A stretch of 64,000 bases of DNA from Clostridia bacterium (GTDB taxonomy: Bacteria > Bacillota > Clostridia > TANB77 > CAG-465), in contig JAVXAF010000002.1 of assembly GCA_036660635.1 (NCBI GenBank), positions 23,657-87,656 on the forward strand, given 5' to 3'. Below, one piece after another: positions 999 through 64,000 of this stretch. The position numbers were made by a program, and so were the translations under genes. The notes beneath the pieces were generated by a model. It ran no database searches, was not told where the DNA came from, and saw only the letters and a program-made list of their open reading frames with translations. Position 1 is the stretch's first letter. The number at the start of each line of letters is the position of its first letter.

Positions 999-1700
999 AT
1001 GAATGATAAAAAAATTTTAATAGTTGATGATGAAAAACCAATTGTTGATATATTGAAATTCAATTTAGAAAAAGAAGGCTTTATTACGACTGTTGCATAT
1101 GATGGCCAAGAGGCAATAAATCTTGCTCTTTCAGTTAAACCGGATTTAATATTACTTGATTTAATGCTACCTAAAATCGACGGCTTTAATGTATGCAAGG
1201 AACTAAGAAAGACTTTAGTTTGCCCTATTATAATGCTAACAGCAAAAGAAGAGGTCGTAGATAAAATTATTGGACTTGAACTAGGAGCCGATGATTATAT
1301 GACAAAACCTTTTAGCATTAGAGAAGTTATTGCTAGAATAAAAGCTAATCTTAGAAAACACATCGTGCCAGATACAGAAGAAGAAAGAAAATCTTCAAAA
1401 TCAAAAATTAAAATCAAGGATATGGTAATAGATCCTGAAAGGTATATTGCAATTGTAGGGTCTAAAGTAATAGACTTAACAATAAAAGAATTTGAACTTT
1501 TAAAAATGTTATCTTCAGCACCCAATCAAGTATTTACAAGAGAACAAATATTAAGAGGCGTTTGGGGATATGATTTTTATGGGGATGCTAGAACAGTAGA
1601 TGTTACAGTTAGAAGATTAAGAGAAAAAATAGAAAAAAATCCAGCTGAACCACAGTATGTTATGACAAAAAGAGGAATGGGATACTACGTTTCAAATTAA
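999..1700 (+). CDS. walR: OmpR-family response regulator, WalR/YycF-like
   Basis: MNDKKILIVDDEKPIVDILKFNLEKEG...DLILLDLMLPKIDG...IIMLTAKEE..DKIIGLELGADDYMTKPFS is nearly collinear with WalR. The C-terminal winged helix is RTVDVTVRRLREKIE. I chose ATG 999 over the track's GTG 984 because GTGAGGTG sits 7 nt upstream. Confidence 0.85.
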   Translation: MNDKKILIVDDEKPIVDILKFNLEKEGFITTVAYDGQEAINLALSVKPDLILLDLMLPKIDGFNVCKELRKTLVCPIIMLTAKEEVVDKIIGLELGADDYMTKPFSIREVIARIKANLRKHIVPDTEEERKSSKSKIKIKDMVIDPERYIAIVGSKVIDLTIKEFELLKMLSSAPNQVFTREQILRGVWGYDFYGDARTVDVTVRRLREKIEKNPAEPQYVMTKRGMGYYVSN

Positions 1701-1716
1701 TAGGTAGGAAAAGCTT

Positions 1717-3117
1717 ATGAAAAAATCTATAAAAAATAGTATAAGAATGATGTGCATAGTGATGGTAGTTATAGGATATATAACTACTATCGTTCTATCA
1801 TCTAAAATAATAGATACCAAAAATATATTTGCCGTGTCTAATATTGTTATTTTAGGCGTTTTAGTAATAATTGCTATAATAGTAGGAAGTGTTATGGCTA
1901 GCAGAATAATTTTTCCACTAAAAAAAATAGAAAAGAGTATGAGAGTTGTTGCTAGTGGAAAAATGATAGAAACAAAGCACTTAAAAAATTATGGAAAATT
2001 TTCTGAAATTGAAGAAGTGGCTGATGCATATATGCTTATGATGCAAGTTATTAAAAAAACCCATTTTGATTTAAATGGTCAGCAAAGTAAAACTGAGATA
2101 ATACTAGAACACATGGCAGATGGAGTTATTGCGTTTTCTGTTACAAAACAAGTAGTGCATATGAATAAATCAGCTATGAGACTACTTAATTTGTCGAGCG
2201 AAGATGACACTTTTGAAAAAATAGTTAATAAATTAAAGATCAATTTGGATTTTGACAAAATAATGTATTTACCAAATTATAAAAGCATTGATGCAAAAAC
2301 TGTAGTAAATGAGAATGCTCTAAATATTGTATTTGTACCGTTTTTTAGTGATAGACTAACTCCAATGGGCGTAATTATGATGGTAAGAAATATTACAGAA
2401 AGTGTAAAACTCGATAACTTAAGAAAAGAGTTTGTTGCTAATGTATCACATGAATTAAAAACTCCACTTACTTCTATAAAAGGCTATTCAGAAACTATTA
2501 TGAATGGTGATTTAACATATCAAGAAATTGTGCGATTTTCTAAAGTTATAAATCAAGAGGCAAATAGAATGGACAGACTGGTAGCAGATTTACTTCAACT
2601 ATCAAGATTTGATTATAAAAAAGTCAGTTGGAAAAAGATGATGTTTTCTCTAGAGGAAATGTCAAAGAGTGTATGTGAAAAAATGCAGTATGCTGCTTCA
2701 CAAAAAAATCATAAATTAGAATGTATAGTTACAGTTCCACCACCCAATGTGTATGCTGATAGGGATGCTATTGAACAAGTAATAATGAATATAGTAAGCA
2801 ATAGTATAAAATATACTCCAGATGGTGGAGAAATAAAAGTATATCTTGGTTCTATTAATTCAAATGCTTATGTAAAAGTAATAGATAATGGGATAGGGAT
2901 TCCATCAAAAGATCTAGATAGAATATTTGAAAGATTTTATAGAGTAGATAAAGCACGTTCAAGACAAATGGGTGGAACTGGCCTTGGTCTTTCTATAGTA
3001 AAAGAAATGATAGAAGGAAATGATGGTACAATAGAAATAAAGAGCCAAGTAAATAAGGGAACAGAAGTGATAATTACTCTTCCAACTAAGATAGGAGTAA
3101 GTAAACAGGTAAGGTGA
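1717..3117 (+). CDS. walK: Sensor histidine kinase (two N-terminal TM helices, HAMP/PAS-like region, HisKA, HATPase), WalK-like short form
   Basis: H-box FVANVSHELKTPLTSIKGYSE. N, G1 and G2 boxes are NIVSNSIKYTP, VIDNGIGIP and GGTGLGLSIVKE. It lies immediately downstream of the WalR-like gene. Confidence 0.8.
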   Translation: MKKSIKNSIRMMCIVMVVIGYITTIVLSSKIIDTKNIFAVSNIVILGVLVIIAIIVGSVMASRIIFPLKKIEKSMRVVASGKMIETKHLKNYGKFSEIEEVADAYMLMMQVIKKTHFDLNGQQSKTEIILEHMADGVIAFSVTKQVVHMNKSAMRLLNLSSEDDTFEKIVNKLKINLDFDKIMYLPNYKSIDAKTVVNENALNIVFVPFFSDRLTPMGVIMMVRNITESVKLDNLRKEFVANVSHELKTPLTSIKGYSETIMNGDLTYQEIVRFSKVINQEANRMDRLVADLLQLSRFDYKKVSWKKMMFSLEEMSKSVCEKMQYAASQKNHKLECIVTVPPPNVYADRDAIEQVIMNIVSNSIKYTPDGGEIKVYLGSINSNAYVKVIDNGIGIPSKDLDRIFERFYRVDKARSRQMGGTGLGLSIVKEMIEGNDGTIEIKSQVNKGTEVIITLPTKIGVSKQVR

Positions 3118-3121
3118 TATA

Positions 3122-3892
3122 TTGAAATATTTTGAAACACATGCACATTATAACGAAGAAGTATTTAAAGAAAATCAAAATGAAATTTTTAAAAAAATAA
3201 AAGAAGCAGGAGTAAATTATATAATAAATGTTGGATATAACAAAAAATCTTCAAAAGAATCCATAGATTTAGCTTCTAAATATGAAAATTTTTATGCAGC
3301 TATTGGAGTTCATCCACATGATGTAGAAAATGAAACTGCAGAGGATATATATAGGTTATATAAGTCTGAAAAAACATCAAAAATAGTTGCAATTGGAGAA
3401 ATTGGGTTAGACTATGCTTTTACTAAAGACAATAAAGAAAAGCAAGCAAAATTGTTTATTAAACAAATAGATATAGCCAATGAGTTTAAACTTCCAATAA
3501 TAGTGCACTCTAGAGAGGCATCTTTAGATACATATCAAATATTAAAAAATAACAAGCCACAATATGGAGTTTTACTCCACTGTTTTAAGCCTAGTGAAGA
3601 ATTAGTCAAATTAGTTATAGAAAACGGTTATATGGTAGCTTTTGGCGGGAATATAACATATAAAAGAAGCAAAAGCTTTTCAAAATATATAAAAATGATA
3701 CCTATAGAACAAATAGTTATTGAAACTGATTCACCATATTTGCCTCCTATACCTTTTAGGGGCACAATAAATGATTCTTCAAATTTACCTTTGATTTGTA
3801 AAAGATTAGCTGAGTATAAAGAAATGGATGAAAATTTTATTTCTAATGCCATATATGAAAATGCAATTAAATTTTTTAAAATAAAAAAATAG
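3122..3892 (+). CDS. tatD: TatD-family metal-dependent hydrolase/DNase
   Basis: TTG start. Motifs are FETHAHY near the N-terminus, GVHPHD, AIGEIGLDY, IVHSREA and ETDSPYLPP. Confidence 0.85.
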   Translation: MKYFETHAHYNEEVFKENQNEIFKKIKEAGVNYIINVGYNKKSSKESIDLASKYENFYAAIGVHPHDVENETAEDIYRLYKSEKTSKIVAIGEIGLDYAFTKDNKEKQAKLFIKQIDIANEFKLPIIVHSREASLDTYQILKNNKPQYGVLLHCFKPSEELVKLVIENGYMVAFGGNITYKRSKSFSKYIKMIPIEQIVIETDSPYLPPIPFRGTINDSSNLPLICKRLAEYKEMDENFISNAIYENAIKFFKIKK

Positions 3893-3915
3893 TATAGAGT
3901 TATTCTATACTATTT

Positions 3916-4236
3916 TTAGTTATCAAAATTATCTTTTATTATTTTAACAATTTGTTTAAATGTAGCAAGTTGTTTATCAGAAAAATAAATTTCTTCTTCT
4001 TCGCAAATTGTATTATTTAAGGAATCAGCAAATAAAGAATCTAGACTTATTTTCAATTCATTAGATAGTTGTATTAGCTTAGCAAGGCTTGGAAGCTTTA
4101 TTCCTCTTTCAATATCACCTAAAAAGTTTTGTGAAACCCCAATTTTTTCTGCTAGTTGAAACTGAGTAAGTTTTAGATTTTCTCTCGACTTTTTTATTTT
4201 CAGACCAAAGGCTTTTTTATTAATTGCATTATCCAT
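3916..4236 (-). CDS. XRE-family helix-turn-helix transcriptional regulator
   Basis: The N-terminal sequence GLKIKKSRENLKLTQFQLAEKIGVSQNFLGDIERGIKLPSLAKLIQL is a typical Cro/C1 HTH. Confidence 0.8.
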   Translation of the reverse strand: MDNAINKKAFGLKIKKSRENLKLTQFQLAEKIGVSQNFLGDIERGIKLPSLAKLIQLSNELKISLDSLFADSLNNTICEEEEIYFSDKQLATFKQIVKIIKDNFDN

Positions 4237-4303
4237 TTAATCACCATCCACATAAATAATACACTATAACAATGTAAAAATAAACAATTAGAGTGTTTTG
4301 AAA

Positions 4304-4322
4304 TAAACGCTGTGGGCGTTTA
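4304..4322. promoter_or_regulatory. Perfect 7-bp inverted repeat (TAAACGC-n5-GCGTTTA) in the divergent XRE / small-ORF intergenic region; candidate operator
   Basis: Read directly from the sequence. It is an unusually GC-containing palindrome in an AT-rich spacer between divergent genes. Confidence 0.25.
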
Positions 4323-4414
4323 ATAGTAATAAAAGTAAAAATAATGTTATAAAATAGAAAAAAAGTTTTAAAAATTATATATATACATATACTAAAATTG
4401 AGGTTGATATATAT

Positions 4415-4678
4415 ATGCTAAATTACAGTATTTTAAAAGAAAAAACTGATAGATATTATGAAGATAATTTTAAAAGCGTTAATGAAACTATACCAGACGA
4501 AATAGAAAAAGCCAGACTTTTTAATTTTATGGCAAATATCTTAAATCAGATTGTATATGATTCATACTATACAATAAAAAGGGAGGATTTTGACTTTTTA
4601 ATAAAATACAATATTGATGTAACAGAATTATTAAATGAATTTGCAAATAATGAAATAATTGAAAAAAGAGAGCTATAA
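4415..4678 (+). CDS. Hypothetical small acidic protein (87 aa), divergent from the XRE regulator
   Basis: An ORF with GAGGT-like RBS (ATTGAGGTTGAT) upstream. No family recognised. Confidence 0.4.
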   Translation: MLNYSILKEKTDRYYEDNFKSVNETIPDEIEKARLFNFMANILNQIVYDSYYTIKREDFDFLIKYNIDVTELLNEFANNEIIEKREL

Positions 4679-4819
4679 GCTTTCTTTTTTTATATAAATA
4701 TATGAAATGTGATTAATATTTAATAGATATTAATACAACTTGTAAAAATATATAATTTTTTAACAAAGTATTGATTTTATAATATAGGTATGTTATAATA
4801 TTAAGCGTATTGAATATAT

Positions 4820-4895
4820 CGGGGTGTAGCGCAATTGGTAGCGCGCGTGGTTTGGGACCATGAGGTTGCAGGTTCAAGTCCTGTCACTCCGACCA
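4820..4895 (+). tRNA. tRNA-Pro (anticodon UGG), CCA encoded
   Basis: Manual cloverleaf: acceptor CGGGGTG/CACTCCG (one G-U), D arm GCGC-AATTGGTA-GCGC, anticodon arm CGTGG-TTTGGGA-CCATG, T arm GCAGG-TTCAAGT-CCTGT, then ACCA. Confidence 0.9.
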
Positions 4896-4900
4896 TAAAA

Positions 4901-4927
4901 AGAGACTTTTTCAGTCTCTATTTTTTT
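4901..4927 (+). terminator. Rho-independent terminator after tRNA-Pro
   Basis: Stem AGAGACT / AGTCTCT with a 5-nt loop, followed by a T7 run. Confidence 0.8.
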
Positions 4928-4984
4928 GTCTTTGGCTTTATTTCAATGTTTTTAAGTATCTATAACTTTCTCAAAATTCCTCCC

Positions 4985-5020
4985 ACTGCATTCAAAACTG
5001 CATTCAAAACTGCATTCAAT
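4985..5020. repeat. Three tandem copies of a 12-bp unit (ACTGCATTCAAA x2, then ACTGCATTCAAT)
   Basis: Read directly from the sequence. It lies about 60 bp inside the tRNA-proximal copy of the duplicated tRNA 3' end. Confidence 0.85.
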
Positions 5021-5100
5021 TTAGTAATATTTATCAACTTCGTTATTTTTGAATGTATTTATTTGTTTTAATAGTCTTGAAATATAGTAGTAGCAATCAT

Positions 5101-5250
5101 TTAAAGGATTTCATTTGCAAATTCTTTAAATTTAAAAGTTCCATTATCACTTTGTTCTACAGCCGATATATTTTGTCTACTCATAGTAGCTATTACTTCC
5201 ATTATACGTTTGTTAATATTTAAATTATTTACTTTAATCTTTTCTATCAT
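5101..5250 (-). CDS. Hypothetical 49-aa protein (MIEKIKVNNLNINKRIMEVIATMSRQNISAVEQSDNGTFKFKEFANEIL)
   Basis: Not in the ORF track because it is under 60 aa. GAGGTG RBS lies 7 nt upstream of the ATG on the minus strand. No family recognised. Confidence 0.3.
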   Translation of the reverse strand: MIEKIKVNNLNINKRIMEVIATMSRQNISAVEQSDNGTFKFKEFANEIL

Positions 5251-5295
5251 TAAATATCACCTCATATAATATAGTTAAGCTAAATTATAACCATA

Positions 5296-6123
5296 TTATT
5301 CTACTATAAGTATTCTATTAAATATTCCAACACCTGCAGGAATTGAAAATTGAACTTCTATATTTAATTTGTTTTTATCATCAATAAAATATTTTATTGT
5401 ATTGTTTTTCACAGAATTATTATAATTTTCTAGTGTTTCGTTAAGATATTTATTGAAACTATCTCCTTGTGAGCCGTCCATATATTGCATTTCTTCTTCC
5501 ATACGCTTTGTTATACAAAAAATTACTTTTTGATTTATATTATTATCAGTAAAACCTAATTTCTTATATACATCTTGATATGTACATTGTTTTAATGTTT
5601 CTAAATTAAATGTATATGTATACGCATAATAATTAGTTGGCTTTTCAATCACTATAGATATTAAATTATCTTTTTCAAAAGTAATGTAAGACGTACATAT
5701 AATAGGTAGGTAAGAATTTTCTTTATCACCTAATAGTTGTTTATATAGTAAGACATGCTCATCATATATATTTTTTATTTCTTTATTAGCTTTAATAGCA
5801 TCATCTGAATTTATATTTATATATGGTAGTACAATATTATCAATAGATATAATTGATCCATCTTCCATCTTATATGAACTAGGTTTTACATCAGATGTAT
5901 AATTAGCATTATATACATATCCTTTTGATGTATCATTTTTTTTGTTTTTAGTAATTTCTTTAGTAGTTTCTTGTTCTTGATGATTATTTTTGCCAATTAC
6001 TTTGTCTTGTACAACCTTTTTTGAATTATTTAATTTGACACCTAAGTATACTGCTATAGCAGATGCAACTATTGTAGTTATAAAAAATATAACTATGTAA
6101 ATATTTTTTCTTTTATTTTCCAT
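5296..6123 (-). CDS. Membrane-anchored hypothetical protein (N-terminal TM, extracytoplasmic domain)
   Basis: I placed the start at MENKRKNIYIVIFFITTIVASAIAVYLG, which has a GGAGG RBS. The track's upstream extension would run into the duplicated tRNA 3' end. There is loose by-eye resemblance to DUF4163/DUF3298-type envelope proteins. Confidence 0.55.
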   Translation of the reverse strand: MENKRKNIYIVIFFITTIVASAIAVYLGVKLNNSKKVVQDKVIGKNNHQEQETTKEITKNKKNDTSKGYVYNANYTSDVKPSSYKMEDGSIISIDNIVLPYININSDDAIKANKEIKNIYDEHVLLYKQLLGDKENSYLPIICTSYITFEKDNLISIVIEKPTNYYAYTYTFNLETLKQCTYQDVYKKLGFTDNNINQKVIFCITKRMEEEMQYMDGSQGDSFNKYLNETLENYNNSVKNNTIKYFIDDKNKLNIEVQFSIPAGVGIFNRILIVE

Positions 6124-6217
6124 TTCTAACCTCCACGTTATCTTTAGTAAAATTATACACGAAAGTAAAAAATTAAGCAATAGCCTTTTGTTAAGTGTTT
6201 TAACTATATTATTTGTG

Positions 6218-6266
6218 GTCACTCTGACCATAAAAAGAGACTTTTTGTCTCTCTTTTTTTGTCTGT
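6218..6266 (+). repeat. Direct-repeat copy of the tRNA-Pro 3' end plus its terminator (candidate att remnant)
   Basis: GTCACTCTGACCATAAAAAGAGACTTTTTGTCTCTCTTTTTTTGTCTG aligns with 4883-4934 (GTCACTCCGACCATAAAAAGAGACTTTTTCAGTCTCTATTTTTTTGTCT). Only a few substitutions and a 2-nt indel separate them. Confidence 0.85.
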
Positions 6267-6441
6267 GTCCATAATTTTATATTTTTTAATATATACAAGT
6301 TTCTCAAATTATATCAAAAGTTGCCATAATGTCATTCTGTATAAAAACTAATATAAAAAAGCAATGAAAAAGAGTATGATTTATATGTCTTGGTGTTATT
6401 TAATTTTAATCCTTTGCATAATATTTTATAGGGTGATTAAA

Positions 6442-7935
6442 ATGAAAAAATTAACAGATGAATTAGGACATATAGTTTCATCAGATGAATTCTCATTGTC
6501 AACGGGAATCCCTGGTGAAACCTTAATTGAAGATACTTATATGATTGATAAATTGGCACACTTTAACAGGGAAAGAATACCAGAAAGAGTGGTACACGCA
6601 AAAGGTGGAGGTGCTTTTGGGTATTTTGAAGTTACAAATGACTTATCAAAATATACTTGTGCAAAGTTTTTATCACAAGTTGGTAAAAAAACTGAGATGT
6701 TAGCTAGATTTTCAACTGTTGGTGGTGAAAAAGGATCTGCCGATAGTGTCATGGATCCTAGAGGATTTGCTCTTAAATTTTATACAGAAGATGGTAATTA
6801 TGATTTAGTTGGAAACAATACCCCTGTTTTTTTTATAAGGGATGCAATAAAATTTCCTGATTTTATTCATACACAAAAAACAGATCCAAAGTCTAATTTA
6901 AAAAATCCAAATATGTTTTGGGATTTTTTATCGCTTACACCTGAGTCAATACATCAAGTAATGATACTTTTTTCAGATAGAGGTATTCCAAAAGGCTTTA
7001 GACATATGCATGGATTTGGTTCTCATACTTTTATGTGGTACAACAAAGATATGGAGTATTGTTTTGTGAAATATCATATAAAAACAAATCAAAAAATTGA
7101 AAACATACCTAGTGAAGAGGCTAAGATACTTGCTGGTAATGATCCGGATAGCTCAATAAGAGATTTATATGAAAGTATAAAAAAAGGAGATTTTCCATCG
7201 TGGAGTGTATATGTTCAAATAATGAGTAAAGAGCAGGCAAAGACGTATAAATTTGATCCATTTGATGTTACTAAAGTTTGGTATCATAAAGATTTTCCCC
7301 TTATCCCACTTGGAAAAATAGTTTTAAATAAAAATCCAAATAATTTTTTTACTGATATAGAACAAGCTGCTTTTTGCCCTTCACATTTTGTAAAAGGAAT
7401 AGGCCCTACTCCTGACAAACTATTGCAAGGTAGATTAGTCGCTTACTCAGATGCTCATAGATATAGGGTAGGTACAAATGTCAATGAGCTTGAAGTAAAC
7501 AAACCTAAAGCACAGATGTATACATATCAAAAAGATGGAACAATGGCAAACAATACTCAAGGAAATACAATACTTAATTATTTTCCAAATACATATGAAT
7601 CAATTGAAGAAGATTCAAGTTATAAAATACCAGATATAAAAGTAGATGGATTTATAGCAAGACATCATTTTCCTTTAAAAGACATAGATTTTGAACAACC
7701 TGGAGAATTATATAGAAGAGTAATGGGGGAAAAAGAAAGAGAAATTCTAATAGATAATTTAACCAATAGTTTAAAGCTTGCTGATAGTAAACTTAAATAT
7801 AGAATGGTTTCACTTTTTTATAAGACAGATAAAAATTTGGGCAAAAGATTAGCTACTAAACTTTTACTTAACTTAGAAACGGTAATAAAACTAGCTAATA
7901 TGACTCAAGAAGAAAGGGTTAAAAATACGTTATAA
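6442..7935 (+). CDS. katA: Monofunctional haem catalase
   Basis: Motifs are FNRERIPERVVHAKGGGAFGYFEV, RFSTVGGEKGSAD, DPRGFALKFYTEDGNYDLVGNNTPVFFIRD and RLVAYSDAHRYRVG. I chose the start at MKKLTDELG with an upstream AGGGTGA RBS. Confidence 0.95.
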   Translation: MKKLTDELGHIVSSDEFSLSTGIPGETLIEDTYMIDKLAHFNRERIPERVVHAKGGGAFGYFEVTNDLSKYTCAKFLSQVGKKTEMLARFSTVGGEKGSADSVMDPRGFALKFYTEDGNYDLVGNNTPVFFIRDAIKFPDFIHTQKTDPKSNLKNPNMFWDFLSLTPESIHQVMILFSDRGIPKGFRHMHGFGSHTFMWYNKDMEYCFVKYHIKTNQKIENIPSEEAKILAGNDPDSSIRDLYESIKKGDFPSWSVYVQIMSKEQAKTYKFDPFDVTKVWYHKDFPLIPLGKIVLNKNPNNFFTDIEQAAFCPSHFVKGIGPTPDKLLQGRLVAYSDAHRYRVGTNVNELEVNKPKAQMYTYQKDGTMANNTQGNTILNYFPNTYESIEEDSSYKIPDIKVDGFIARHHFPLKDIDFEQPGELYRRVMGEKEREILIDNLTNSLKLADSKLKYRMVSLFYKTDKNLGKRLATKLLLNLETVIKLANMTQEERVKNTL

Positions 7936-7941
7936 TAAAAA

Positions 7942-7980
7942 CAAAGGTGTTCTAAAAATAGGACACCTTTGCTTTTATTT
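7942..7980 (+). terminator. Rho-independent terminator after catalase
   Basis: Stem CAAAGGTGT / ACACCTTTG followed by CTTTTATTT. Confidence 0.8.
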
Positions 7981-8211
7981 AGAGTCAAAGAAAAGATTTT
8001 AATTTTCTTATATTATTTTCTTCTATTTTCTCATAAGTGAATCATATCATTTTCTGTTTTAGAGTTGTATTTGTTTATATTTTTTATTATAAAAAAATTG
8101 TAATACTGCTAAAAGTTGGCTTTACAATTATTTAAAATTTGTTTAAAATCATTGACTTTAAGGTTAAAAAAGTATAATATTATATATATACAAAAGAGGA
8201 GGTCTTACATT

Positions 8212-9585
8212 ATGTCTTTAAATGCAAAGTACCAATATACTCACTTTATTTATCCGTTTGTAGTTGAAGAAAAAAAATATAATAGCTTTATTAATTCTTT
8301 GATAAGACAAGAGAAAAATTGGAATTTAAAAATTCATGAGCAAAAAAATGATGATGAATTATATAACTTCTTTTTGCCTTATATGAAAAAGTTTTTATTT
8401 CCTACTTTAATGTGGAACAATAACGATATAAAAGAATATAAAAGTATGAATTTGTACAAAAAGACAAGTGCTGCTAGTAAAATGACATGCCTTACTTTTA
8501 ACTATAATCTTTCAAATATTAAAACTGGCAGTGTTAAAGGAAAACAATATGGTGCTATTAATTTTGATATTTCAAAAATAAAACTTATTTGTTTTGCACC
8601 GGGAATATGTTTTTTAGATATTAAGGCAGAAATTGATGAAGAAGACGAATTAATAGATTTTAAGAAGGTATTAGATTTTAACCATAATTTTAGGAATTTA
8701 ACTCCAAGAGCAATAAATAATTTTATTAATAAAAATACTATTAAAGGTAAAAAAATTGATAAAGTAGAAAACATTTCAATATTTATAAATTCAATTATTT
8801 CTGGATTTGAAACCCAAGACCTTGAAAAAATATATTATGATAAAATGTTTACATATTCATATGTATGTGTTGATTCATGGGAAAAGGAAAATGATTTTGA
8901 AAAAATCAAAAATGAGTTTTATAAATTTCAATATGTTTTAGACAGTAAAAGTAGTGCTGTATTTAATAATGAATGTGATAAATTAGACGAAAACACTTAT
9001 TCTAGATGGCAATATTCTATGTTTGGATTTTCAAGAGAAAGTGGAGTAGTTTTTGTCTCAGACAAAGAAAAATATAATATAACAAAAATGCCATATAATT
9101 TTGAGAAGACATATTTGTATATGCTACTTTTAGCTTTTTATCAAAGAATAAGTTTAATAAATTTTTCTCAAGATTTAATGAAAAATGATAAAACAATGGT
9201 AAAAAAATTAAAGAAAAAATTGACTAATTTTACACATCTTAGTTGGTTTAGTCAAATAACTAATTCTGAACATGGTATGGATATTTGGAAAAAATGGCAA
9301 AAGGCATTTGGACTAAGTGAATTATACGAAGAAGTACATAAAGAGTATATCGAATATTATGATTTTGTAACTGCTAGTGGGCAAGATAGGATAAATATTA
9401 TACTTATTATGTTATATACACTTAGTGTGGTCTTTACTGGATGCCAAATCATAACAAATATGTTTGACCTAAGAAAGATGGAACCATATATAATAGCTTT
9501 AATGGTGGCAGCGGTAATTAGCTATCCAATTTATACTATAATAAGATGGGCAGTGCATAAATTACAAGCAAAGGCAAATAAATAA
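8212..9585 (+). CDS. Hypothetical protein with large soluble N-terminal domain and C-terminal two-TM hairpin
   Basis: I set the start at MSLNAKYQYTHFIYPF, which has an AGGAGG RBS. Two C-terminal hydrophobic helices are INIILIMLYTLSVVFTGCQII and YIIALMVAAVISYPIYTII. No family recognised. Confidence 0.6.
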   Translation: MSLNAKYQYTHFIYPFVVEEKKYNSFINSLIRQEKNWNLKIHEQKNDDELYNFFLPYMKKFLFPTLMWNNNDIKEYKSMNLYKKTSAASKMTCLTFNYNLSNIKTGSVKGKQYGAINFDISKIKLICFAPGICFLDIKAEIDEEDELIDFKKVLDFNHNFRNLTPRAINNFINKNTIKGKKIDKVENISIFINSIISGFETQDLEKIYYDKMFTYSYVCVDSWEKENDFEKIKNEFYKFQYVLDSKSSAVFNNECDKLDENTYSRWQYSMFGFSRESGVVFVSDKEKYNITKMPYNFEKTYLYMLLLAFYQRISLINFSQDLMKNDKTMVKKLKKKLTNFTHLSWFSQITNSEHGMDIWKKWQKAFGLSELYEEVHKEYIEYYDFVTASGQDRINIILIMLYTLSVVFTGCQIITNMFDLRKMEPYIIALMVAAVISYPIYTIIRWAVHKLQAKANK

Positions 9586-9595
9586 TAAGGAGAAT

Positions 9596-10003
9596 ATGAT
9601 GCAAATATATTGTGGAACAGATATAATAGAAGTAGATAGAATACAAGATGCTATAGAAAACACAAAAGGATTTAAGGAAAATGTATTTACAAAAAATGAA
9701 ATTAATACCTTTGATAAAATAAAATGTATTAGTAAATATCAAAGGTACGCAGGACGATTTGCTGCAAAAGAAGCAATATATAAAGCCATGTCTAAAGTGT
9801 TAATAGAAAATAAATTAAATATGAGTTTTATTGATGTTGAAATTATAAATCTTAAAGAGCTAAAAAATAGACCGCAAGTAGTCTTTTTAAATGAAAGTTT
9901 AAAAAGACTTTCTGATGAAATGAAAATTGATATAGATATTAGCATTTCGCATATAAAAGAAAAAGCTATTGCTGTTGCAATAGTAAAATCAAACAAGGAG
10001 TGA
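9596..10003 (+). CDS. acpS: Holo-[acyl-carrier-protein] synthase (4'-phosphopantetheinyl transferase)
   Basis: Motifs are GTDIIEVDRI, RFAAKEAIYKA and ISISHIKEKAIAVAIV. The second ATG at 9599 has better spacing to the AAGGAG RBS and may be the true start. Confidence 0.85.
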   Translation: MMQIYCGTDIIEVDRIQDAIENTKGFKENVFTKNEINTFDKIKCISKYQRYAGRFAAKEAIYKAMSKVLIENKLNMSFIDVEIINLKELKNRPQVVFLNESLKRLSDEMKIDIDISISHIKEKAIAVAIVKSNKE

Positions 10004-11966: not shown

Positions 11967-12665
11967 ATGGACGATGAAAATAAAGTTGAACAAAATGTTA
12001 AACAAAAAAGCAATAATATTAAAAAATCACAAGACAGTAAAATGAATAAAATATTTAAAGAAATAGGCGAATGGATATTTTGCTTTATTATAGCATATGT
12101 ACTATATTTAAATATTAATTATTTTTTCGGTACTATGTCAGGCGTAAAGCAAGTTTCAATGAAGCCTACTGCATTAGAAGGAGAACGCTTAATAGTGCAA
12201 AGACCTAAAATATTTAAAAGACAGATACAGCATGATGATATAATAACATTTGAAGCTCCAAGTGAGTCTACAAAATATCTAAATGAAGAAGTGATAGATG
12301 ATAATATTGCAAAATATATTGAATATACAGGATTAAATAAATTTTTATATAATTTTATTGGAATAGGTAAAATAAGTTATATTAAAAGAGTAATTGGCAT
12401 AGAAGGAGATCATATACAAATTAAAGAAGATGGACAAGTATATAGAAATGAAGGAAAACTTATAGAATCATATACAAAAGATAAAACAACAAATATAAAT
12501 GGCAAATATGTAGATGTAATAGTTCCAAAAGGATGTGTATTTGTTATGGGAGATAATAGATTAGAAAGTAAAGATTCAAGATTTTTTGGATGTATACCGA
12601 TTAATAAAGTAAATGGATATGTCATTTGTAGGGTATGGCCATTTAATAGATTAGGTAAGGTATAA
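11967..12665 (+). CDS. lepB: Signal peptidase I
   Basis: N-terminal TM. The catalytic Ser box is VSMKPT and the Lys box is YIKRVIGIEGD. GDNRLESKDSRFFG is also present. Confidence 0.85.
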   Translation: MDDENKVEQNVKQKSNNIKKSQDSKMNKIFKEIGEWIFCFIIAYVLYLNINYFFGTMSGVKQVSMKPTALEGERLIVQRPKIFKRQIQHDDIITFEAPSESTKYLNEEVIDDNIAKYIEYTGLNKFLYNFIGIGKISYIKRVIGIEGDHIQIKEDGQVYRNEGKLIESYTKDKTTNINGKYVDVIVPKGCVFVMGDNRLESKDSRFFGCIPINKVNGYVICRVWPFNRLGKV

Positions 12666-12678
12666 AAAGGAGAAAGAT

Positions 12679-13512
12679 ATGTTTGAAAATATAGTAGGTC
12701 ATGAAAATCAAAAGCAAAAACTCTGTAATATGATTAAAAATGGCACTGTATCTCATGCATATCTTTTTTGCGGAGATAGTGGAATAGGAAAATCAACTAT
12801 TGCCTGTGAATTCGCTAAAGAAATACTAGGAGTTGAAAACCTTGAAAAGTCTACGGATTATGTATATATATCAAAAAAAGAAGACAAAAAAGATATTGTA
12901 ATTGAACAAATACGAAAAGAAATAATAGATACAGTATATGAGTTGCCAATGTCATCTAATAAAAAAGTATATTTAATAGATGGGGCTGAGCATTTAAATA
13001 TGTCTGCACAAAATGCATTATTAAAGACGCTTGAAGAACCGCCAAAATATATTGTTTTGATACTTATTGCATCAAATAGGGGAGCATTTTTACCTACACT
13101 GCTCTCAAGAGTAAATGAAATTTCATTTAGCGCGCTTAGCGAGGAAAAATTAAAATCATATATATATGATAAATATAATATTAAGTTGCAAGATGATATG
13201 CTAAGATATCTGAATGGATCAATAGGCAAAGCAAATGAAATAATACAAAAAGGATATATAGAAAAATTTTTAAATATTGATAAAATTTATAGCTATTTAA
13301 TAAAAAAAGATTTATTAAATATATATAATTATATATCAAATGTGGATTTTAATGATATTTATATGATAGATTATTTGGAATTTAAACTATATACAAATGG
13401 ATCTTTTAATTGTATCAAATTTATTGAAAGAGCAAAAACAAGATTGAAAAATAATGGCAATTATGATATAGTAGTAGACAGCATGATATTAAAAATAATT
13501 GATTGCATTTAA
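12679..13512 (+). CDS. holB: DNA polymerase III subunit delta'
   Basis: HAYLFCGDSGIGKST P-loop and NALLKTLEEPP motif. The position upstream of yaaT matches the usual Firmicute order. Confidence 0.8.
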   Translation: MFENIVGHENQKQKLCNMIKNGTVSHAYLFCGDSGIGKSTIACEFAKEILGVENLEKSTDYVYISKKEDKKDIVIEQIRKEIIDTVYELPMSSNKKVYLIDGAEHLNMSAQNALLKTLEEPPKYIVLILIASNRGAFLPTLLSRVNEISFSALSEEKLKSYIYDKYNIKLQDDMLRYLNGSIGKANEIIQKGYIEKFLNIDKIYSYLIKKDLLNIYNYISNVDFNDIYMIDYLEFKLYTNGSFNCIKFIERAKTRLKNNGNYDIVVDSMILKIIDCI

Positions 13513-24519: not shown

Positions 24520-25704
24520 ATGAATCTTACAAATAGTATTAAGAATATATTAGGGGTTGTTACAGTTCAAATAGAGGGCTTTTTTACCGAAAGATTTATA
24601 AACCTGTGCAAAATAAATAATATTAAAATTTGGGAAGTTCGAAATGTGGTAAAAGGAGTGATAAGATTTAAAATAAACATTTCTGAGTTTAAAAAACTAA
24701 AAAAAGTTGCCAAAAAAACCAAGTGCAAAATTAAAATCAAAGAAAAAAAAGGAATATATTTTAAATTATTTAAATACAGAAAAAGGAAGTTTGCCGCAAT
24801 TTTATTGTTTTTTGCATTAATTTTTTGTATTCTATTTTCTACTGTCATTTGGAATATTAATATAAGCGGAAATGATACAATTACATCAGAAGAATTATTA
24901 AACCAGCTAAAAGAATCTGGACTATACGTGGGTAAGACTAAAATAGGTTTGGACAAAAAGAAAATTATTAACAATTTAAGACTTACATCAAAAGATGTAT
25001 CTTGGGTGGGTTTAGAAATTAATGGAACACAAGCCAATATTAAGGTTGTAGAAAAAACAAGACTAGAAAAAAGAGATATACAACAGATAAAACCTGGAGA
25101 TATAATTGCAACAAAATCAGGTATAATAACAAAGATTGTACCAGAAAATGGCACGGCTAAGTATAAAGTTGGAAGTTATATTGAAGAGGGAACAATTGTA
25201 ATAGAGGGAACAATATATAGCAAGTTTATAGAGCCAATTCAGGTTCCGGCAAAGGGAATATTTAGAATTGATTGTGATTATACTTTTGAAAAAGAATATA
25301 AATATGAACAAGTACAAAAAGAGTATACTGGTAAAAAGTTTTTCACTATAGGAATTGGAATAAATTATAAAGAAAATATGTTTAATTATTTGAATAAATC
25401 TAAAAAATATGATATAAGTAAAATAAGTAAGAAAATGAATTTTTTTGGAAAAGTTATTTCATTTGATTTTTATAAATGTGTGGAATATGTTCAAAAGTCT
25501 CATGTAGGCACTAAGGAAGAACTACTAAATAAAGCAAATTTAGAAAGTGAAGAATATTTTAAAAAAGAAATATTAGCAAAATTAAATGAACCAAAGTTGG
25601 TAAAACAAAATGAAAATATATTAGAAAAAGAAGATGGAATAATAGTAAAAAAAGTATATACATTAAACGAAGAAGTTGGTAAATTTGTGGAAAGGAACTA
25701 CTGA
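24520..25704 (+). CDS. yqfD: Sporulation protein YqfD
   Basis: The size, a single central TM (FAAILLFFALIFCILFSTVIW) and WNINISGND motif match YqfD. Gene order yqfC-yqfD-ybeY-dgkA-cdd follows the Bacillus yqf cluster. Confidence 0.8.
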   Translation: MNLTNSIKNILGVVTVQIEGFFTERFINLCKINNIKIWEVRNVVKGVIRFKINISEFKKLKKVAKKTKCKIKIKEKKGIYFKLFKYRKRKFAAILLFFALIFCILFSTVIWNINISGNDTITSEELLNQLKESGLYVGKTKIGLDKKKIINNLRLTSKDVSWVGLEINGTQANIKVVEKTRLEKRDIQQIKPGDIIATKSGIITKIVPENGTAKYKVGSYIEEGTIVIEGTIYSKFIEPIQVPAKGIFRIDCDYTFEKEYKYEQVQKEYTGKKFFTIGIGINYKENMFNYLNKSKKYDISKISKKMNFFGKVISFDFYKCVEYVQKSHVGTKEELLNKANLESEEYFKKEILAKLNEPKLVKQNENILEKEDGIIVKKVYTLNEEVGKFVERNY

Positions 25705-28182: not shown

Positions 28183-28228
28183 AAAAATCCTTTCAAATAC
28201 TAATGGTAAGTAATTGAAAGGATTTTTT
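28183..28228 (+). terminator. Rho-independent terminator
   Basis: Perfect 14-bp stem AAAAATCCTTTCAA / TTGAAAGGATTTTT ending in a T run. The track's TTG 28214 start falls inside this stem. Confidence 0.7.
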
Positions 28229-29632
28229 ATGCAAGTTTCAAAAAAAATAAATATAAATGAATTCAAAATGGATAGCAGTTTGGATTTAAAAAACAATTAT
28301 GATATCATAAAAAAACATATAAAAGTTGGTTCAAAACAAGGATGCTTCTACTATATAGATGGATTTTTAAAAGAAAAAATTATGACAAATATAATGGAGG
28401 CTATTTTAAAGATAACTCCTGAACAAATCAGTAGTATAAAAACTGCTGAAGAGTTTTCAAGCAATTTTTTGAATTATCCAGAAATTGAAATTCAAACTGA
28501 TTTTAATATGATATTTCAAAATATATTATCTGGATGTCTTATTTTTTTTATAGATGATTTTGATCAGAGCATAATAATTGATATTAGAAAATACCCAAAT
28601 AGAAGTATAGAAGAACCTGAAAATGATAAAGTTTTAAGAGGAGCAAAAGATGGATTTATAGAGACACCGATAGTAAATATTGCTCTAATAAGAAGAAGAA
28701 TTAGGAGTCTTGATCTAAAAGTAGAGTATTTTAATTTAGGAGAAGAAACTCATAGTGATGTTGTTATTTGTTATATGCAAAGTAAAGTTGATGGTGAAAA
28801 GCTCGAAAATTTAAAAAATAAAATATCAAATTTAAAGGTTAAGTCACTAACTAATGGTAGTCAGAGCTTAATTGAATCTCTTAGTACTAAAAAATGGATA
28901 AATCCATTTCCAAAAGTAAAATTCACATCAAGACCTGATATTGCAGCAAGTAATCTACTTGAGGGGCGCATAATTTTAATGGCTGATAATACACCATCTG
29001 TTGCAATTGTTCCGACATTTATACTTGATTTTTTTCAAGAGGCTGAGGATTACTATTTTCCACCCCCTACTGGTAATTTTATACGTTTTACAAGAATATT
29101 ACTAGCAATTATTTCTACGTTTGTAACACCGTTATGGCTTTTAGCAATAAAAAATTTGAGCTTATTGCCTACTTGGCTTGCTTTTTTAGAACCTAAAGAA
29201 ATGGCAGGCATTCCGACATTAATTCAGTTACTATTTCTTGAGTTTTCGGTTGAAGCATTAAGGGCGGCAAGTGTTAATACACCCGCAATGATATCAACCT
29301 CAGTTGCTTTAATTGGTACAATTATAATAGGAGATATTGCAGTTGTAAGTAAAATAATAATGCCAGAAGCATTGCTTTTTACAGCTTTTGCAACCATAGG
29401 ATTTTATTGCCAATCATCATTTGAGTTTGGATATGCATTAAAATATGTAAGAATGATGTTATTGATTTTAGTGGGACTATTTAATTTTTATGGCTTGGCA
29501 ATAGGTATAATTATAACAATTTTAATGATGGCTTTTAATAAAACTATTACAAAAGATAGTTTTATTTATCCATTAATTCCTTTTAATTTTAAAGATCTTA
29601 AAAAAAGTTTAATAAGAACTAAAAATATTTAG
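28229..29632 (+). CDS. GerA-family spore germination protein (A-subunit type), no B or C subunit genes adjacent
   Basis: KYPNRSIEEPENDKVLRGAKDGFIETPIVNIALIRRRI and a C-terminal multi-TM region are typical of GerAA/SpoVAF-type proteins. I set the start at ATG 28229. Confidence 0.8.
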   Translation: MQVSKKININEFKMDSSLDLKNNYDIIKKHIKVGSKQGCFYYIDGFLKEKIMTNIMEAILKITPEQISSIKTAEEFSSNFLNYPEIEIQTDFNMIFQNILSGCLIFFIDDFDQSIIIDIRKYPNRSIEEPENDKVLRGAKDGFIETPIVNIALIRRRIRSLDLKVEYFNLGEETHSDVVICYMQSKVDGEKLENLKNKISNLKVKSLTNGSQSLIESLSTKKWINPFPKVKFTSRPDIAASNLLEGRIILMADNTPSVAIVPTFILDFFQEAEDYYFPPPTGNFIRFTRILLAIISTFVTPLWLLAIKNLSLLPTWLAFLEPKEMAGIPTLIQLLFLEFSVEALRAASVNTPAMISTSVALIGTIIIGDIAVVSKIIMPEALLFTAFATIGFYCQSSFEFGYALKYVRMMLLILVGLFNFYGLAIGIIITILMMAFNKTITKDSFIYPLIPFNFKDLKKSLIRTKNI

Positions 29633-61430: not shown

Positions 61431-62141
61431 ATGAATAAAGATACAGTAAACACATATATTTCATACACTGCAATACTTGGAATTGTTGTAAAAGCTTTGC
61501 AGGTTATATTATGTATAATGGAAAATCCTGGATTTATCACTCCGACAATTACATATCATATTTTAATGATATGTCCATTTGTTATACTTTTTTATGCTTC
61601 AAGAAAAAAATATAGTTCGGTGTGTTTAATGGGAATTATAATTGCTGTAGCTACAATTGTGTCGTTTAATATTTTTGATGTTATATATGCTACGATATTG
61701 ATAATTGTATCACTTTTACTTCTTCCTTCCAGAGAAATATATAGAGACTCATATAAAAAAAACAGATTTAAAAATATTTGGTTACTTATACTTTTTATAG
61801 TGTTTGCTTTAACAATTCCAATTAATTTATATGAAATTGAAAGTGATAAATTTTCAAACTTAACTCCTAAAGTAATTGTTGATAATTTTGATGTATCACG
61901 TAATAGAATAGCCAAAGAATGCGAAATATATATTAGAAAAAATAATATATTTCCAATTTATGATGATACGGGAAAAATAAATTTTGATGAGTTGGGAATT
62001 GTTGAACCTACAATATTTAAAGGACAAGGAAAGTGGGTTTATTCAGGAAAAATAAATGGAAAAGTTGAATTTGTGTTATTTAATGATTCATATTTAGCAA
62101 AAAAAGGATATAAAAGTTTATTTAGCACTCAGACTAATTAA
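61431..62141 (+). CDS. Hypothetical membrane protein (about 4 TM helices plus C-terminal soluble domain)
   Basis: Strong AAGGGGGA RBS. Hydrophobic helices fill the first 130 aa. No family recognised. Confidence 0.5.
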   Translation: MNKDTVNTYISYTAILGIVVKALQVILCIMENPGFITPTITYHILMICPFVILFYASRKKYSSVCLMGIIIAVATIVSFNIFDVIYATILIIVSLLLLPSREIYRDSYKKNRFKNIWLLILFIVFALTIPINLYEIESDKFSNLTPKVIVDNFDVSRNRIAKECEIYIRKNNIFPIYDDTGKINFDELGIVEPTIFKGQGKWVYSGKINGKVEFVLFNDSYLAKKGYKSLFSTQTN

Positions 62142-62216
62142 AATGGTACAAGGCTGACATGCAATAAATACAAAAATTGGCATAAACATATACCAAAGTG
62201 ATTGGAGGATATGTTT

Positions 62217-62867
62217 ATGCTTTTTTCTTTTTTTAGTAGTTTATTATCGCATATGTTTTTTCTATTTGGATATATCTCAAATAATAATTTGTTTCCAGAA
62301 CCATTATCTAAGACAGAAGAAGAATATTATTTAAAAAAATATTTTGAGGGCGACAAAGACGCAAGAAATGTTTTAATTGAACATAATTTAAGATTAGTAG
62401 CTCATATTGCTAAAAAATATTCAAATAATGAGCAAGAATTAGAAGAACTAATATCAATTGGAACAATTGGACTTATAAAGGCAATAAACAGCTTTAGTTG
62501 TGACAAAGGCTTTAAGGTTAGTACATATGCCAGTAAATGCGTTGAAAATGAAATTTTGATGAATATACGATCAACAAAAAAACAAAAATATGAAGTTTCA
62601 ATGAATACAATAATTGGAACAGATAAAGATGGAAACGATATGGAATTAGTTGAGACAATTGATTCAAATGCTAAAGATGCAATTGATACAATATATAACA
62701 AAATAATGACAGATCAAGTTATTAATTATGTTAACACAAAGCTAACAAAAAGAGAAAAGTATATAATGAATTTAAGATATGGAATTAATGGCAAAAATAC
62801 AAAAACACAACAAGAAATAGCTGATGAACTTGGAATTTCACGTAGCTATGTATCAAGAACTTGTTAG
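62217..62867 (+). CDS. sigK: RNA polymerase sporulation sigma factor K, 5' segment only: reading frame ends inside region 4.2 (interrupted or truncated gene)
   Basis: The pro-sequence followed by YISNNNLFPEPLS, then LIEHNLRLVAHIAKKY, ISIGTIGLIKAI, YASKCVENEILM and TQQEIADELGISRSYVSR, are collinear with SigK. After ...SYVSR the frame reads TC-stop. The expected IEKRAL... recognition-helix continuation and C-terminus are missing. I chose ATG 62217, which has a GGAGG RBS 8 nt upstream. Confidence 0.8.
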   Translation: MLFSFFSSLLSHMFFLFGYISNNNLFPEPLSKTEEEYYLKKYFEGDKDARNVLIEHNLRLVAHIAKKYSNNEQELEELISIGTIGLIKAINSFSCDKGFKVSTYASKCVENEILMNIRSTKKQKYEVSMNTIIGTDKDGNDMELVETIDSNAKDAIDTIYNKIMTDQVINYVNTKLTKREKYIMNLRYGINGKNTKTQQEIADELGISRSYVSRTC

Positions 62868-63140
62868 TACACATATGACAAAACCTTAGCAAATCAACGT
62901 TTTTTAAAACCATTCAAATATAAAAGCAATAACAAAAAATCAATTTTTTTAATATTAAGCAGGACAAGTAATAAATTTTAATTATTTAAGCTACTACTAT
63001 AAATATTATAGAGTAGTTTTTTTATGTGAAAGAATAGATAAAAATAATATTAAATTTATATAAAATAATGTAATAATAAATGTTTTTATTCCATTTTTCG
63101 ACTAAAAAAATGGAAAGTATAGGAAAGAGCCCCCTCTCTA

Positions 63141-63149
63141 TGGTATAAT
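63141..63149 (+). promoter_or_regulatory. Extended -10 element (TGGTATAAT) upstream of the RT gene
   Basis: Read directly from the sequence, 55 nt upstream of ATG 63204. No good -35 element is present. Confidence 0.35.
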
Positions 63150-63203
63150 ATTTAATGAAATAATATATATGCGATGAAAATAAAAAGCTAAGAAGGAGAT
63201 AGT

Positions 63204-64000
63204 ATGAAACAGATATTAAAAATGAATTCAGATAATGCAAAGAAATATTTTTTAAAAGAAAAGAGTTATTTTAATGTAGATTTACCACCATATTTTAAAT
63301 TTCAAGACATATTAAATAGCTGTGAACAATCTCTATTAGTAGAAAAAGATATAAAGAATTTATATAAAACGGGAAAATTTCCAAAAAATTGTGAAAATGT
63401 GAATTATAAATTTTTATGCAACAAAGATGGAAAATTTGCATGGAGACCTTTTCAAATAATACATCCATTGTTATACGTAAATTTAGTTAATCAAATAACC
63501 CAAAATGAAAATTGGAATAAAATTCAAAAACGTTTTGTGGAATTTAAAAAAAATAAGAATATTGTTTGTTGTAGCGATTTACTAGAATCTGATACTAAAT
63601 TGCATGATAAATTTTCAACAATAATGAATTGGTGGGGAAAGTTTGAACAACAATCAATAGAATTATCAGCACAATATTCAAAAATTGCTTGTACAGATAT
63701 AACGGATTGTTATGGAAGTATATATACACATACCATAGTTTGGGCAATAGAAGGCAGGGATATTGCTAAGCAAAAAAAGAATGATAAAAAATTCAATAAA
63801 ACAATTTCTCCACAAATAGATAAACTATTACAAGAGATGTCTTATGGTGAAACAAATGGAATTCCACAAGGCAGCGCTTTAATGGATTTTATAGCAGAAA
63901 TAGTATTAGGTTATGCGGATTTATTATTGACTGAAAAACTAGAAACATTACAAATAAAAAATTACAAAATTTTGAGATATAGAGATGATTATCGAATATT
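63204..64000 (+). CDS. Reverse transcriptase, stand-alone defence-type (Abi/UG/DRT-like), 3' end outside window
   Basis: Not in the ORF track because it runs off the window. AAGGAG RBS at 63193-63198. Translated motifs are FAWRPFQIIHPLLYV (RT1/2-like), ACTDITDCYGSIYTH (motif A Asp), NGIPQGSALMDFIAEIVL (motif B) and KILRYRDDYRI (motif C, YxDD). Confidence 0.85.
   Translation, partial: MKQILKMNSDNAKKYFLKEKSYFNVDLPPYFKFQDILNSCEQSLLVEKDIKNLYKTGKFPKNCENVNYKFLCNKDGKFAWRPFQIIHPLLYVNLVNQITQNENWNKIQKRFVEFKKNKNIVCCSDLLESDTKLHDKFSTIMNWWGKFEQQSIELSAQYSKIACTDITDCYGSIYTHTIVWAIEGRDIAKQKKNDKKFNKTISPQIDKLLQEMSYGETNGIPQGSALMDFIAEIVLGYADLLLTEKLETLQIKNYKILRYRDDYRI

Follow-up and report, generated by a model that had tools for sequence, protein, structure and literature searches.

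A sigK gene broken within its recognition-helix codons in a Clostridia genome, probably by a skin-like intervening element with an AbiP2-type reverse transcriptase

The excision of elements from sigK during development is a classic programmed DNA rearrangement in bacteria, of which few cases are known, mostly large, prophage-like elements of cultured species. Here, we describe the sigK gene of a metagenome-assembled genome (MAG) of a Clostridia bacterium, located in a stretch of 64,000 nt (assembly GCA_036660635.1, contig JAVXAF010000002.1, positions 23,657 to 87,656 of the forward strand), hereafter called the window. The gene breaks off within the codons of the region 4.2 recognition helix, i.e. 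between S-Y-V-S-R and I-E-T-K, and is probably interrupted by a skin-like, mobile, non-phage gene-intervening element with an AbiP2-type anti-phage reverse transcriptase (RT) at its visible left end. The support for this interpretation is mainly comparative, coming from the genomes of related Clostridia.

In Bacillus subtilis, sigK is split into spoIVCB and spoIIIC by skin, a 48-kb defective prophage whose excision by the serine recombinase SpoIVCA has been demonstrated in the mother cell (for background, see PMC4191935). The skinCd element of Clostridioides difficile, with its large serine recombinase (LSR) CD1231 and directionality factor CD1234, the skin element of C. tetani (skinCt) and the C. 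perfringens phage phiS63 are moved by LSRs and have short identical cores and imperfect inverted repeats (PMC5025042, PMC3442830, PMC5553647). In phiS63, the core is located at nt 427 of sigK, with skinCd and skinCt at similar positions (PMC3442830); a prophage of Alicyclobacillus described in 2026 is a further sigK-intervening example (PMC13141910). In gerE of Bacillus cereus ATCC 10987 resides gin, a non-prophage element of 28.6 kb with three recombinases and a restriction-modification system, which is excised by a serine recombinase together with a small factor (GirC/GirX) (PMC5595907).

Together with elements found at the same site in related lineages (see below), the locus described here shares several traits with skin, i.e. 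the arrangement of sigK in a 5' and a 3' part, a recombinase that in the relatives, like spoIVCA, is encoded on the opposite strand and adjoins the 5' part, and a pro-sigma-K that carries an N-terminal pro-sequence (MLFSFF...FGYISNNNLFPEPL in the window). Unlike in skin, the break is only ~50 nt away from the 3' end of sigK, near nt 636 of ~693 and within the recognition helix, a position that also differs from those of phiS63, skinCd and skinCt, and for which no description was found in the literature searched, although this search was not exhaustive. Of the skin-like split put forward in the original prediction, an intervening element near the 3' end of sigK is supported by the orthologs and by the relatives' elements, whereas the prophage-like character is not: the latter are cassettes of 2.8-6.7 kb without phage genes, as opposed to the 48 kb of skin, and the visible cargo of the window is a defence RT. 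The locus also resembles gin in that it would be a non-viral, defence-carrying island in a late mother-cell regulator, with methyltransferases in one relative (L093) and an Abi-type RT in the window. Unlike gin, however, the relatives' elements are far smaller, possess one LSR and an open reading frame (ORF) of ~40 aa, and reside in sigK instead of gerE.

The break in sigK and the DNA that follows it

The sigK ORF of the window extends from an ATG at 62217 to 62867 (216 aa; alternative starts at 62202 and 62211). Its product is SigK, as it scores 283.4 bits against the SigK-specific NCBIfam model NF004471 (cut-off 252; model positions 5-215 of 235) and only 205-216 bits against SigE models. 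The Pfam domains Sigma70_r2 and Sigma70_r4 were both found, the latter covered over model positions 4-39 of 50 only. The final ~15-20 positions of the SigK models are unmatched, and the score against TIGR02846 (277.7 bits, positions 2-213 of 227) falls short of the cut-off of 298.65, as a truncation would lead one to expect. Translation, profile matches and ortholog alignment all confirm what had first been read from the DNA, i.e. collinearity with SigK followed by Thr-Cys-stop: the protein, which over aa 12-214 shares 85 % identity with the intact ortholog P0002, follows intact orthologs collinearly as far as ...SRSYVSR, breaks off sharply thereafter and ends in ...TQQEIADELGISRSYVSR-T-C-stop (Table 1). 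About 110 of the 120 best SigK homologs are 227-234 aa long and continue as ...SRSYVSRIETKVQNKLKKYVKWQE, and full-length orthologs (229-233 aa) run on past the break as ...RIETKVQNKLKKYVKWQE, i.e. with 15-17 further residues.

A simple frameshift was rejected, as it had been in the original prediction, because the protein continues in no frame: searched for by its peptide patterns (IE[TMK]K.., IEKRA and KLKKY-type) and by its DNA core, the sigK tail was encountered in none of the window's six frames (64 kb), and tblastn finds a single sigK copy there. A naturally short C-terminus was rejected as well; no ortholog ends naturally at this position, and each truncated homolog examined was either interrupted by an insertion or cut by a contig end. 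Lacking half of the -35-recognition helix, the product of sigK before excision should be inactive.

The DNA beyond the break is foreign to the locus. The upstream genes hpf, sua5, adk, map and that of a 235-aa membrane protein are common to the window and the P0002 locus, where 65 bp separate the end of sigK from a convergent GNAT gene; in the window, a spacer and an RT gene are found in that place. Relative to the ancestral arrangement, the DNA that follows 62859 has therefore been inserted. The spacer of 336 bp (62868-63203) has a G+C content of 20-23 % and no credible ORF, and the RT gene starts at 63204, in agreement with the AT-rich non-coding DNA and unrelated gene noted earlier. Base composition was rejected as a marker of inserted DNA, since inserted DNA and host are alike. 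The far side was sought via the GNAT gene that follows intact sigK, and the matches belonged to other organisms. In the closest intact relative (L090 6711-7688; L091 6498-7475), a DUF1016/YhcG-type gene is found between the gene of the 235-aa membrane protein and sigK; it is absent from the window, and the sigK neighbourhood is therefore variable on both sides.

As the source is a MAG, the junction might also be an artefact of assembly or binning, i.e. a contig ending in sigK chimerically joined to unrelated DNA. The contig of a sister assembly (L001) indeed stops at 63017, 150 bp beyond the sigK stop codon and within a hairpin, and in a related species, the junction is exactly where contigs stop. 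However, two separately deposited assemblies record the identical 216-aa product (MEG2348681.1 and MEG2645595.1), including the element-derived Thr-Cys-stop, and share 150 identical bases past the junction. Considering further that the break lies exactly at a biologically recurrent site, such an artefact appears very improbable.

Table 1. Features of the window at and after the sigK break, and sigK loci of related lineages interrupted at the same site
Feature or locus	Position or size	Strand	Remarks
Window, sigK 5' segment	62217..62858	+	Pro-sequence, regions 2-4.1 and first half of region 4.2 helix-turn-helix; ends ...GISRSYVSR
Window, junction interval (attL core region)	62847..62859	+	TATGTAT 62847-62853, GT centre 62850-62851; sigK-compatible (TCA AGA A) to 62859
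Window, Thr-Cys-stop codons	62859..62867	+	ACT TGT TAG, supplied by inserted DNA
Window, element-side arm of attL	62860..62883	+	Ends in TATGACAAAA (62874-62883), distal arm motif of relatives
Window, hairpin then seven-T run	62988..63023	+	Terminator-like; folding -11.1 kcal/mol, z = -2.75
Window, AbiP2-type defence RT, first 265 codons	63204..64000	+	Cut by window end at YRDD motif
L006	Element 4,456 bp		LSR, Bro-N, RepA_N; ~40-aa ORF 12418-12540
L093	Element 5,139 bp		LSR, Dam methylase, DUF6996/6997/7226, N6/N4 methylase; ~40-aa ORF 6853-6996
L189	Element 2,815 bp		LSR, PhdYeFM-like gene; ~40-aa ORF 3499-3621
L100	Element ~6.7 kb		LSR; ~40-aa ORF 9694-9813
L102	Element ~3.4 kb		LSR adjoining tail; amidohydrolase between LSR and attL; ~40-aa ORF upstream of LSR
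L002	>10 kb, far end not reached		LSR; HD-domain gene between attL and LSR; ~40-aa ORF 13102-13236
L101	Far end not found		LSR, ~800 bp from attL; ~40-aa ORF upstream of LSR
L187	Contig ends 2.7 kb in		No LSR in those 2.7 kb
P0013 species			Seven contigs stopping exactly at junction

Same-site elements in related Clostridia and their att sites

In nine other lineages, sigK is broken within the same three codons (Y-V-S), and the break in the window is therefore not due to chance. Seven of the nine carry an LSR with Resolvase, Recombinase and Zn_ribbon_recom domains, in every case on the strand opposite to sigK. Both ends of the element are seen in five lineages (L006, L093, L189, L100 and L102), in which the sigK tail is found at the far end. 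The site is recurrently targeted by one LSR clade: the recombinases of L002, L006 and L093 show pairwise identities of 60-66 %, and the L100, L101 and L102 enzymes share 80, 79 and 61 % identity, respectively, with that of L006, although the identity of the host SigK goes down to ~50 %. These LSR identities (60-80 %) cover six loci, the L189 recombinase having been identified by its Pfam domains alone. To any recombinase in phage records, the relatives' LSRs are at most 34 % identical.

Directly upstream of all seven LSRs lies the conserved ORF of ~40 aa, with the consensus ...NLICIYDETKENIEDILLKIY..FV..EL (pattern ...N[LV]ICIY[DN][ED]T...I[YF]..F[VI]..EL...; no Pfam hit on record), which is a candidate excision directionality factor or regulator. 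Considering that cargo sits between attL and the LSR in L002 and L102, and that L187 has no LSR within the first 2.7 kb, the layout of the window is not exceptional. In skinCd, the LSR adjoins the 3' moiety of sigK, which shows that the distance between recombinase and 5' junction can be large, as the window would require.

The attL and attR sequences of L002, L006, L093, L100, L101, L102, L187 and L189 were aligned. The core common to the relatives' attL and attR is TATGTAT (Tyr-Val codons), with its GT as the symmetry centre, and the element arms are imperfect inverted repeats with G(C/G)(A/T)AC(G/A)T near the core and TATGA(C/T).AAA 11 nt away. In-silico excision at TATGTAT yielded a 231-aa protein for L006 and a 230-aa protein for L189, which are 100 % identical to P0032 and P0017, respectively, i.e. 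to full-length SigK alleles from other contigs. Occupied and precisely empty sites therefore coexist, as predicted for a site-specific reversible element.

The attL of the window reads ...CACGTAGC-TATGTAT-CAAGAACTTGTTAGTACACA-TATGACAAAA..., and its arm contains the distal motif TATGACNAAA, located 9 nt further out than in the relatives. This motif occurs four times in both strands of the window (128 kb); by a rough post-hoc estimate, a correctly oriented copy would fall within 40 nt of the junction with a chance of about 0.001. It is ambiguous whether the crossover took place at the same GT with a 9-nt longer, sigK-like arm, or 6-9 nt further 3'. The junction can be bracketed to 62850-62859, which is compatible with the 62856-62861 first proposed, and the exact crossover depends on attR.

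Another mobile element, such as a tyrosine-integrase island, a transposon or a defence island arriving by another route, could in principle have entered the same bases, with sigK being restored by some other mechanism. Such an event would account for an apparent breakpoint (sigK-like sequence to 62859) 6-9 nt 3' of the crossover of the LSR family, as well as for the fact that no recombinase of any kind is visible. Nevertheless, it is very unlikely that, in a megabase genome, an independent insertion would strike within 9 bp of a known LSR core, the arm has both the proximal GAAC and the distal TATGACNAAA motif of the family in the right orientation, and neither a target-site duplication nor a terminal inverted repeat is evident, so that we regard this explanation as improbable. 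A group II intron was likewise rejected, as no intron RNA was detected (no Rfam match in 62000-64000 at E <= 1), and the group II RT model matches the window RT with an E-value of only 1.6e-5, compared with 5.5e-114 for AbiP2.

Several further observations were made at these loci. In L102 (ERZ1643249.837 NODE-837, 1500-9800), sigK is apparently present in three pieces, i.e. aa 14-114 at 9760-9458, aa 108-212 at 5322-5007 and the tail at ~1576, split by two separate serine-recombinase elements, one of ~3.4 kb at the Y-V-S site and one of ~4.1 kb near codon 110 (LSR in two ORFs, 5309-7019, and a GNAT gene); both LSRs look frameshifted in that assembly. Past the sigK break of L002/L003 (10640-20700), VanW, D-Ala-D-Ala ligase, VanY, acyltransferase and alanine racemase domains and a response regulator are encoded, a gene set that, judging from its domains, resembles a van-type (D-Ala-D-Ser-like) cluster and apparently lies inside the >10-kb sigK-intervening element.

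For the P0013 species (L095-L098; GCA_036645795.1, GCA_036646865.1 and Logan runs), the seven contigs come from several assemblies and all stop at ...SRSYVS, which suggests an assembler branch at the junction, i.e. between occupied and empty sites or between alternative elements. In L187 (8930-9070), a second arm-like sequence, GGTATAGGTATCTTCGTGATTATGATGAAAA, is located ~75 nt past the attL arm TATGTATAGGACCGTGGGTATGATGAAAAA, and may be the remnant of an earlier or tandem insertion; the cargo of L187 consists of a P-loop kinase-like gene, a nucleotidyltransferase and a radical SAM gene. The IMG/VR sequence L120 (2914-4777) harbours a more distant LSR adjoining a sigK 3' moiety that begins near residue 133, and thus represents an element at the classical mid-gene site, on a predicted viral contig. 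Finally, in L099 (GCA_037193245.1, 11141-16448), an ORF of 33 aa with a weak SpoIIID match is directly followed by genes with AAA_14/DUF4143 and SNF2-helicase domains, and spoIIID of this genome may be interrupted by an insertion.

The visible cargo and the excision competence of the window copy

The window, and probably also its source contig, ends 1.1 kb into the element, and the only gene seen therein encodes the N-terminal part of an RT. AbiP2 has been described from a variable region of P2-like prophages of E. coli. The window RT resembles AbiP2 and the DRT-class RTs, as it matches AbiP2 over the first 256 profile positions (PADLOC PDLC03744, E = 5.5e-114, positions 4-256 of 489, the C-terminal half lying beyond the window) and contains the YRDD active-site motif; the match to NCBIfam Drt4 (E = 4e-30) is under the cut-off. 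Unlike the E. coli AbiP2, it is located at the edge of an element within a sporulation gene of a Clostridia MAG; only part of it lies in the window, and its identity to entries of the collections searched is at most 59 %.

Its closest homologs are just 56-59 % identical and scattered across phyla, with matches not exceeding 59 % in a set of 5.8 billion proteins and 56 % in GTDB representative genomes. Exact searches with a 26-nt pattern of the element arm found no occurrence in JGI metagenomes or IMG/VR, blastn of 62868-64000 gave no match in phage records, and the 336-bp spacer showed similarity to the fetched loci at noise level only. The hairpin in the spacer was not flagged by a terminator consensus scan, which is explained by its A+T-rich stem. 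In another Clostridium (L056 7089-12349) and in L072, an AbiP2-like RT ~52 % identical to that of the window lies 1.4 kb from a divergently oriented, distantly related LSR, together with an HTH regulator, an Abi_alpha gene and Toprim/DUF3987 genes; AbiP2-like RTs thus travel on LSR islands elsewhere too.

That an intervening element interrupts sigK of the window is probable because orthologs do not end at this position, and because the same-site elements of the relatives carry an LSR and the sigK tail and excise precisely in silico. If so, the element would continue beyond 64000 and end in an attR fused to a sigK tail of 15-17 codons, with the expected layout of an inverted copy of GTTTTGTCATATGTGTAC, the core and ATAGAAAC, encoding a tail similar to YVSRIETKVQNKLKKYVKWQE. 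In the mother cell, an LSR, either the element's own or one acting in trans, would join attL and attR, and the rejoined sigK would yield full-length pro-sigma-K, which would then be processed, while the forespore chromosome, and hence the spore, would retain the element with its defence cargo. The hairpin and T-run would keep transcription started at the sigK promoter from entering the RT gene.

Several points weigh against this reading. No recombinase gene was found in the visible 1.1 kb or, by tblastn, elsewhere in the window, whose six frames also lack the 3' fragment of sigK, and no intact sigK allele of the window's species occurs in the collections searched. Moreover, TATGTAT and TATGAC are spaced by 20 nt in the window versus 11 nt in all eight relatives, and the window retains 6-7 more sigK-like bases beyond the crossover than these do; its att site may therefore be recognized by a different enzyme or be damaged. 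Lastly, the evidence for the family is all genomic and, unlike for skin, excision in the sporulating mother cell has been demonstrated for none of its members. The intervening-element reading is thus only partly supported, being strong for the family and unproven as regards the excision competence of the window copy, for which the deviating arm spacing and the visible 1.1 kb without a recombinase call for caution.

The same deviations could also point to a dead end, i.e. a real insertion whose excision was lost because the recombinase was lost, an att arm damaged or the 3' fragment deleted, leaving sigK as a recent pseudogene in a lineage that is, or is becoming, asporogenous. There is no recombinase next to attL, unlike in most relatives, the arm spacing is 9 nt off that of all eight, and the RT protein is missing from the protein collection even though sigK of the same assemblies is present, so that the RT gene may have been annotated as a pseudogene, or the contig may stop there. 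Against this, an LSR need not adjoin attL, as seen in L102 and L187, and the 5' part of sigK comprises 214 codons without stop or frameshift in a genome of 27 % G+C, with dN/dS values of 0.05-0.12 against five relatives, equal to those among the relatives themselves. This shows that the 5' part is under strong purifying selection and has not decayed, which argues against a long-standing loss of sporulation, although a recent dead-end insertion would still be compatible. Besides sigK, the window encodes an intact YqfD homolog (24520-25704) and an intact GerA-family spore germination protein (28214-29632), i.e. the genome harbours further sporulation and germination functions. Taken together, we consider a dead end unlikely.

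Significance for sporulating Clostridia

While gene-intervening elements of this kind are well known, those described here differ from the known sigK elements in their position, in the very small size and non-phage content seen in the relatives, and in the defence RT cargo. A distinct, widespread subfamily of minimal sigK cassettes is plausible but unproven. It is tempting to speculate, albeit tentatively, that one LSR clade with its ~40-aa ORF has specialized on the S-Y-V-S-R codons of sigK across distantly related, mostly uncultured Clostridia, with SigK identities down to ~50 %, forming excision cassettes of 2.8-6.7 kb that carry defence and possibly resistance cargo, such as methyltransferases, an antitoxin-like gene, an apparent van-like cluster or the AbiP2 RT. 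The window would then represent a variant with a shifted att geometry, possibly without a recombinase of its own and mobilized in trans.

Annotation pipelines label such truncated genes 'SigK' or 'SigK, partial', which could lead to wrong judgements of sporulation capacity where this is inferred from MAGs. If our interpretation holds true, the phenomenon of sigK excision would reach uncultured, very A+T-rich gut Clostridia, with an insertion site in the last 15-17 codons, i.e. in the -35-recognition helix, that is undescribed in the literature searched. The elements would be near the minimum possible, with a single recombinase, a very short ORF and one to three genes of cargo, and their anti-phage cargo would be tied to a location that is lost only in the terminally differentiating mother cell and always inherited via the spore.

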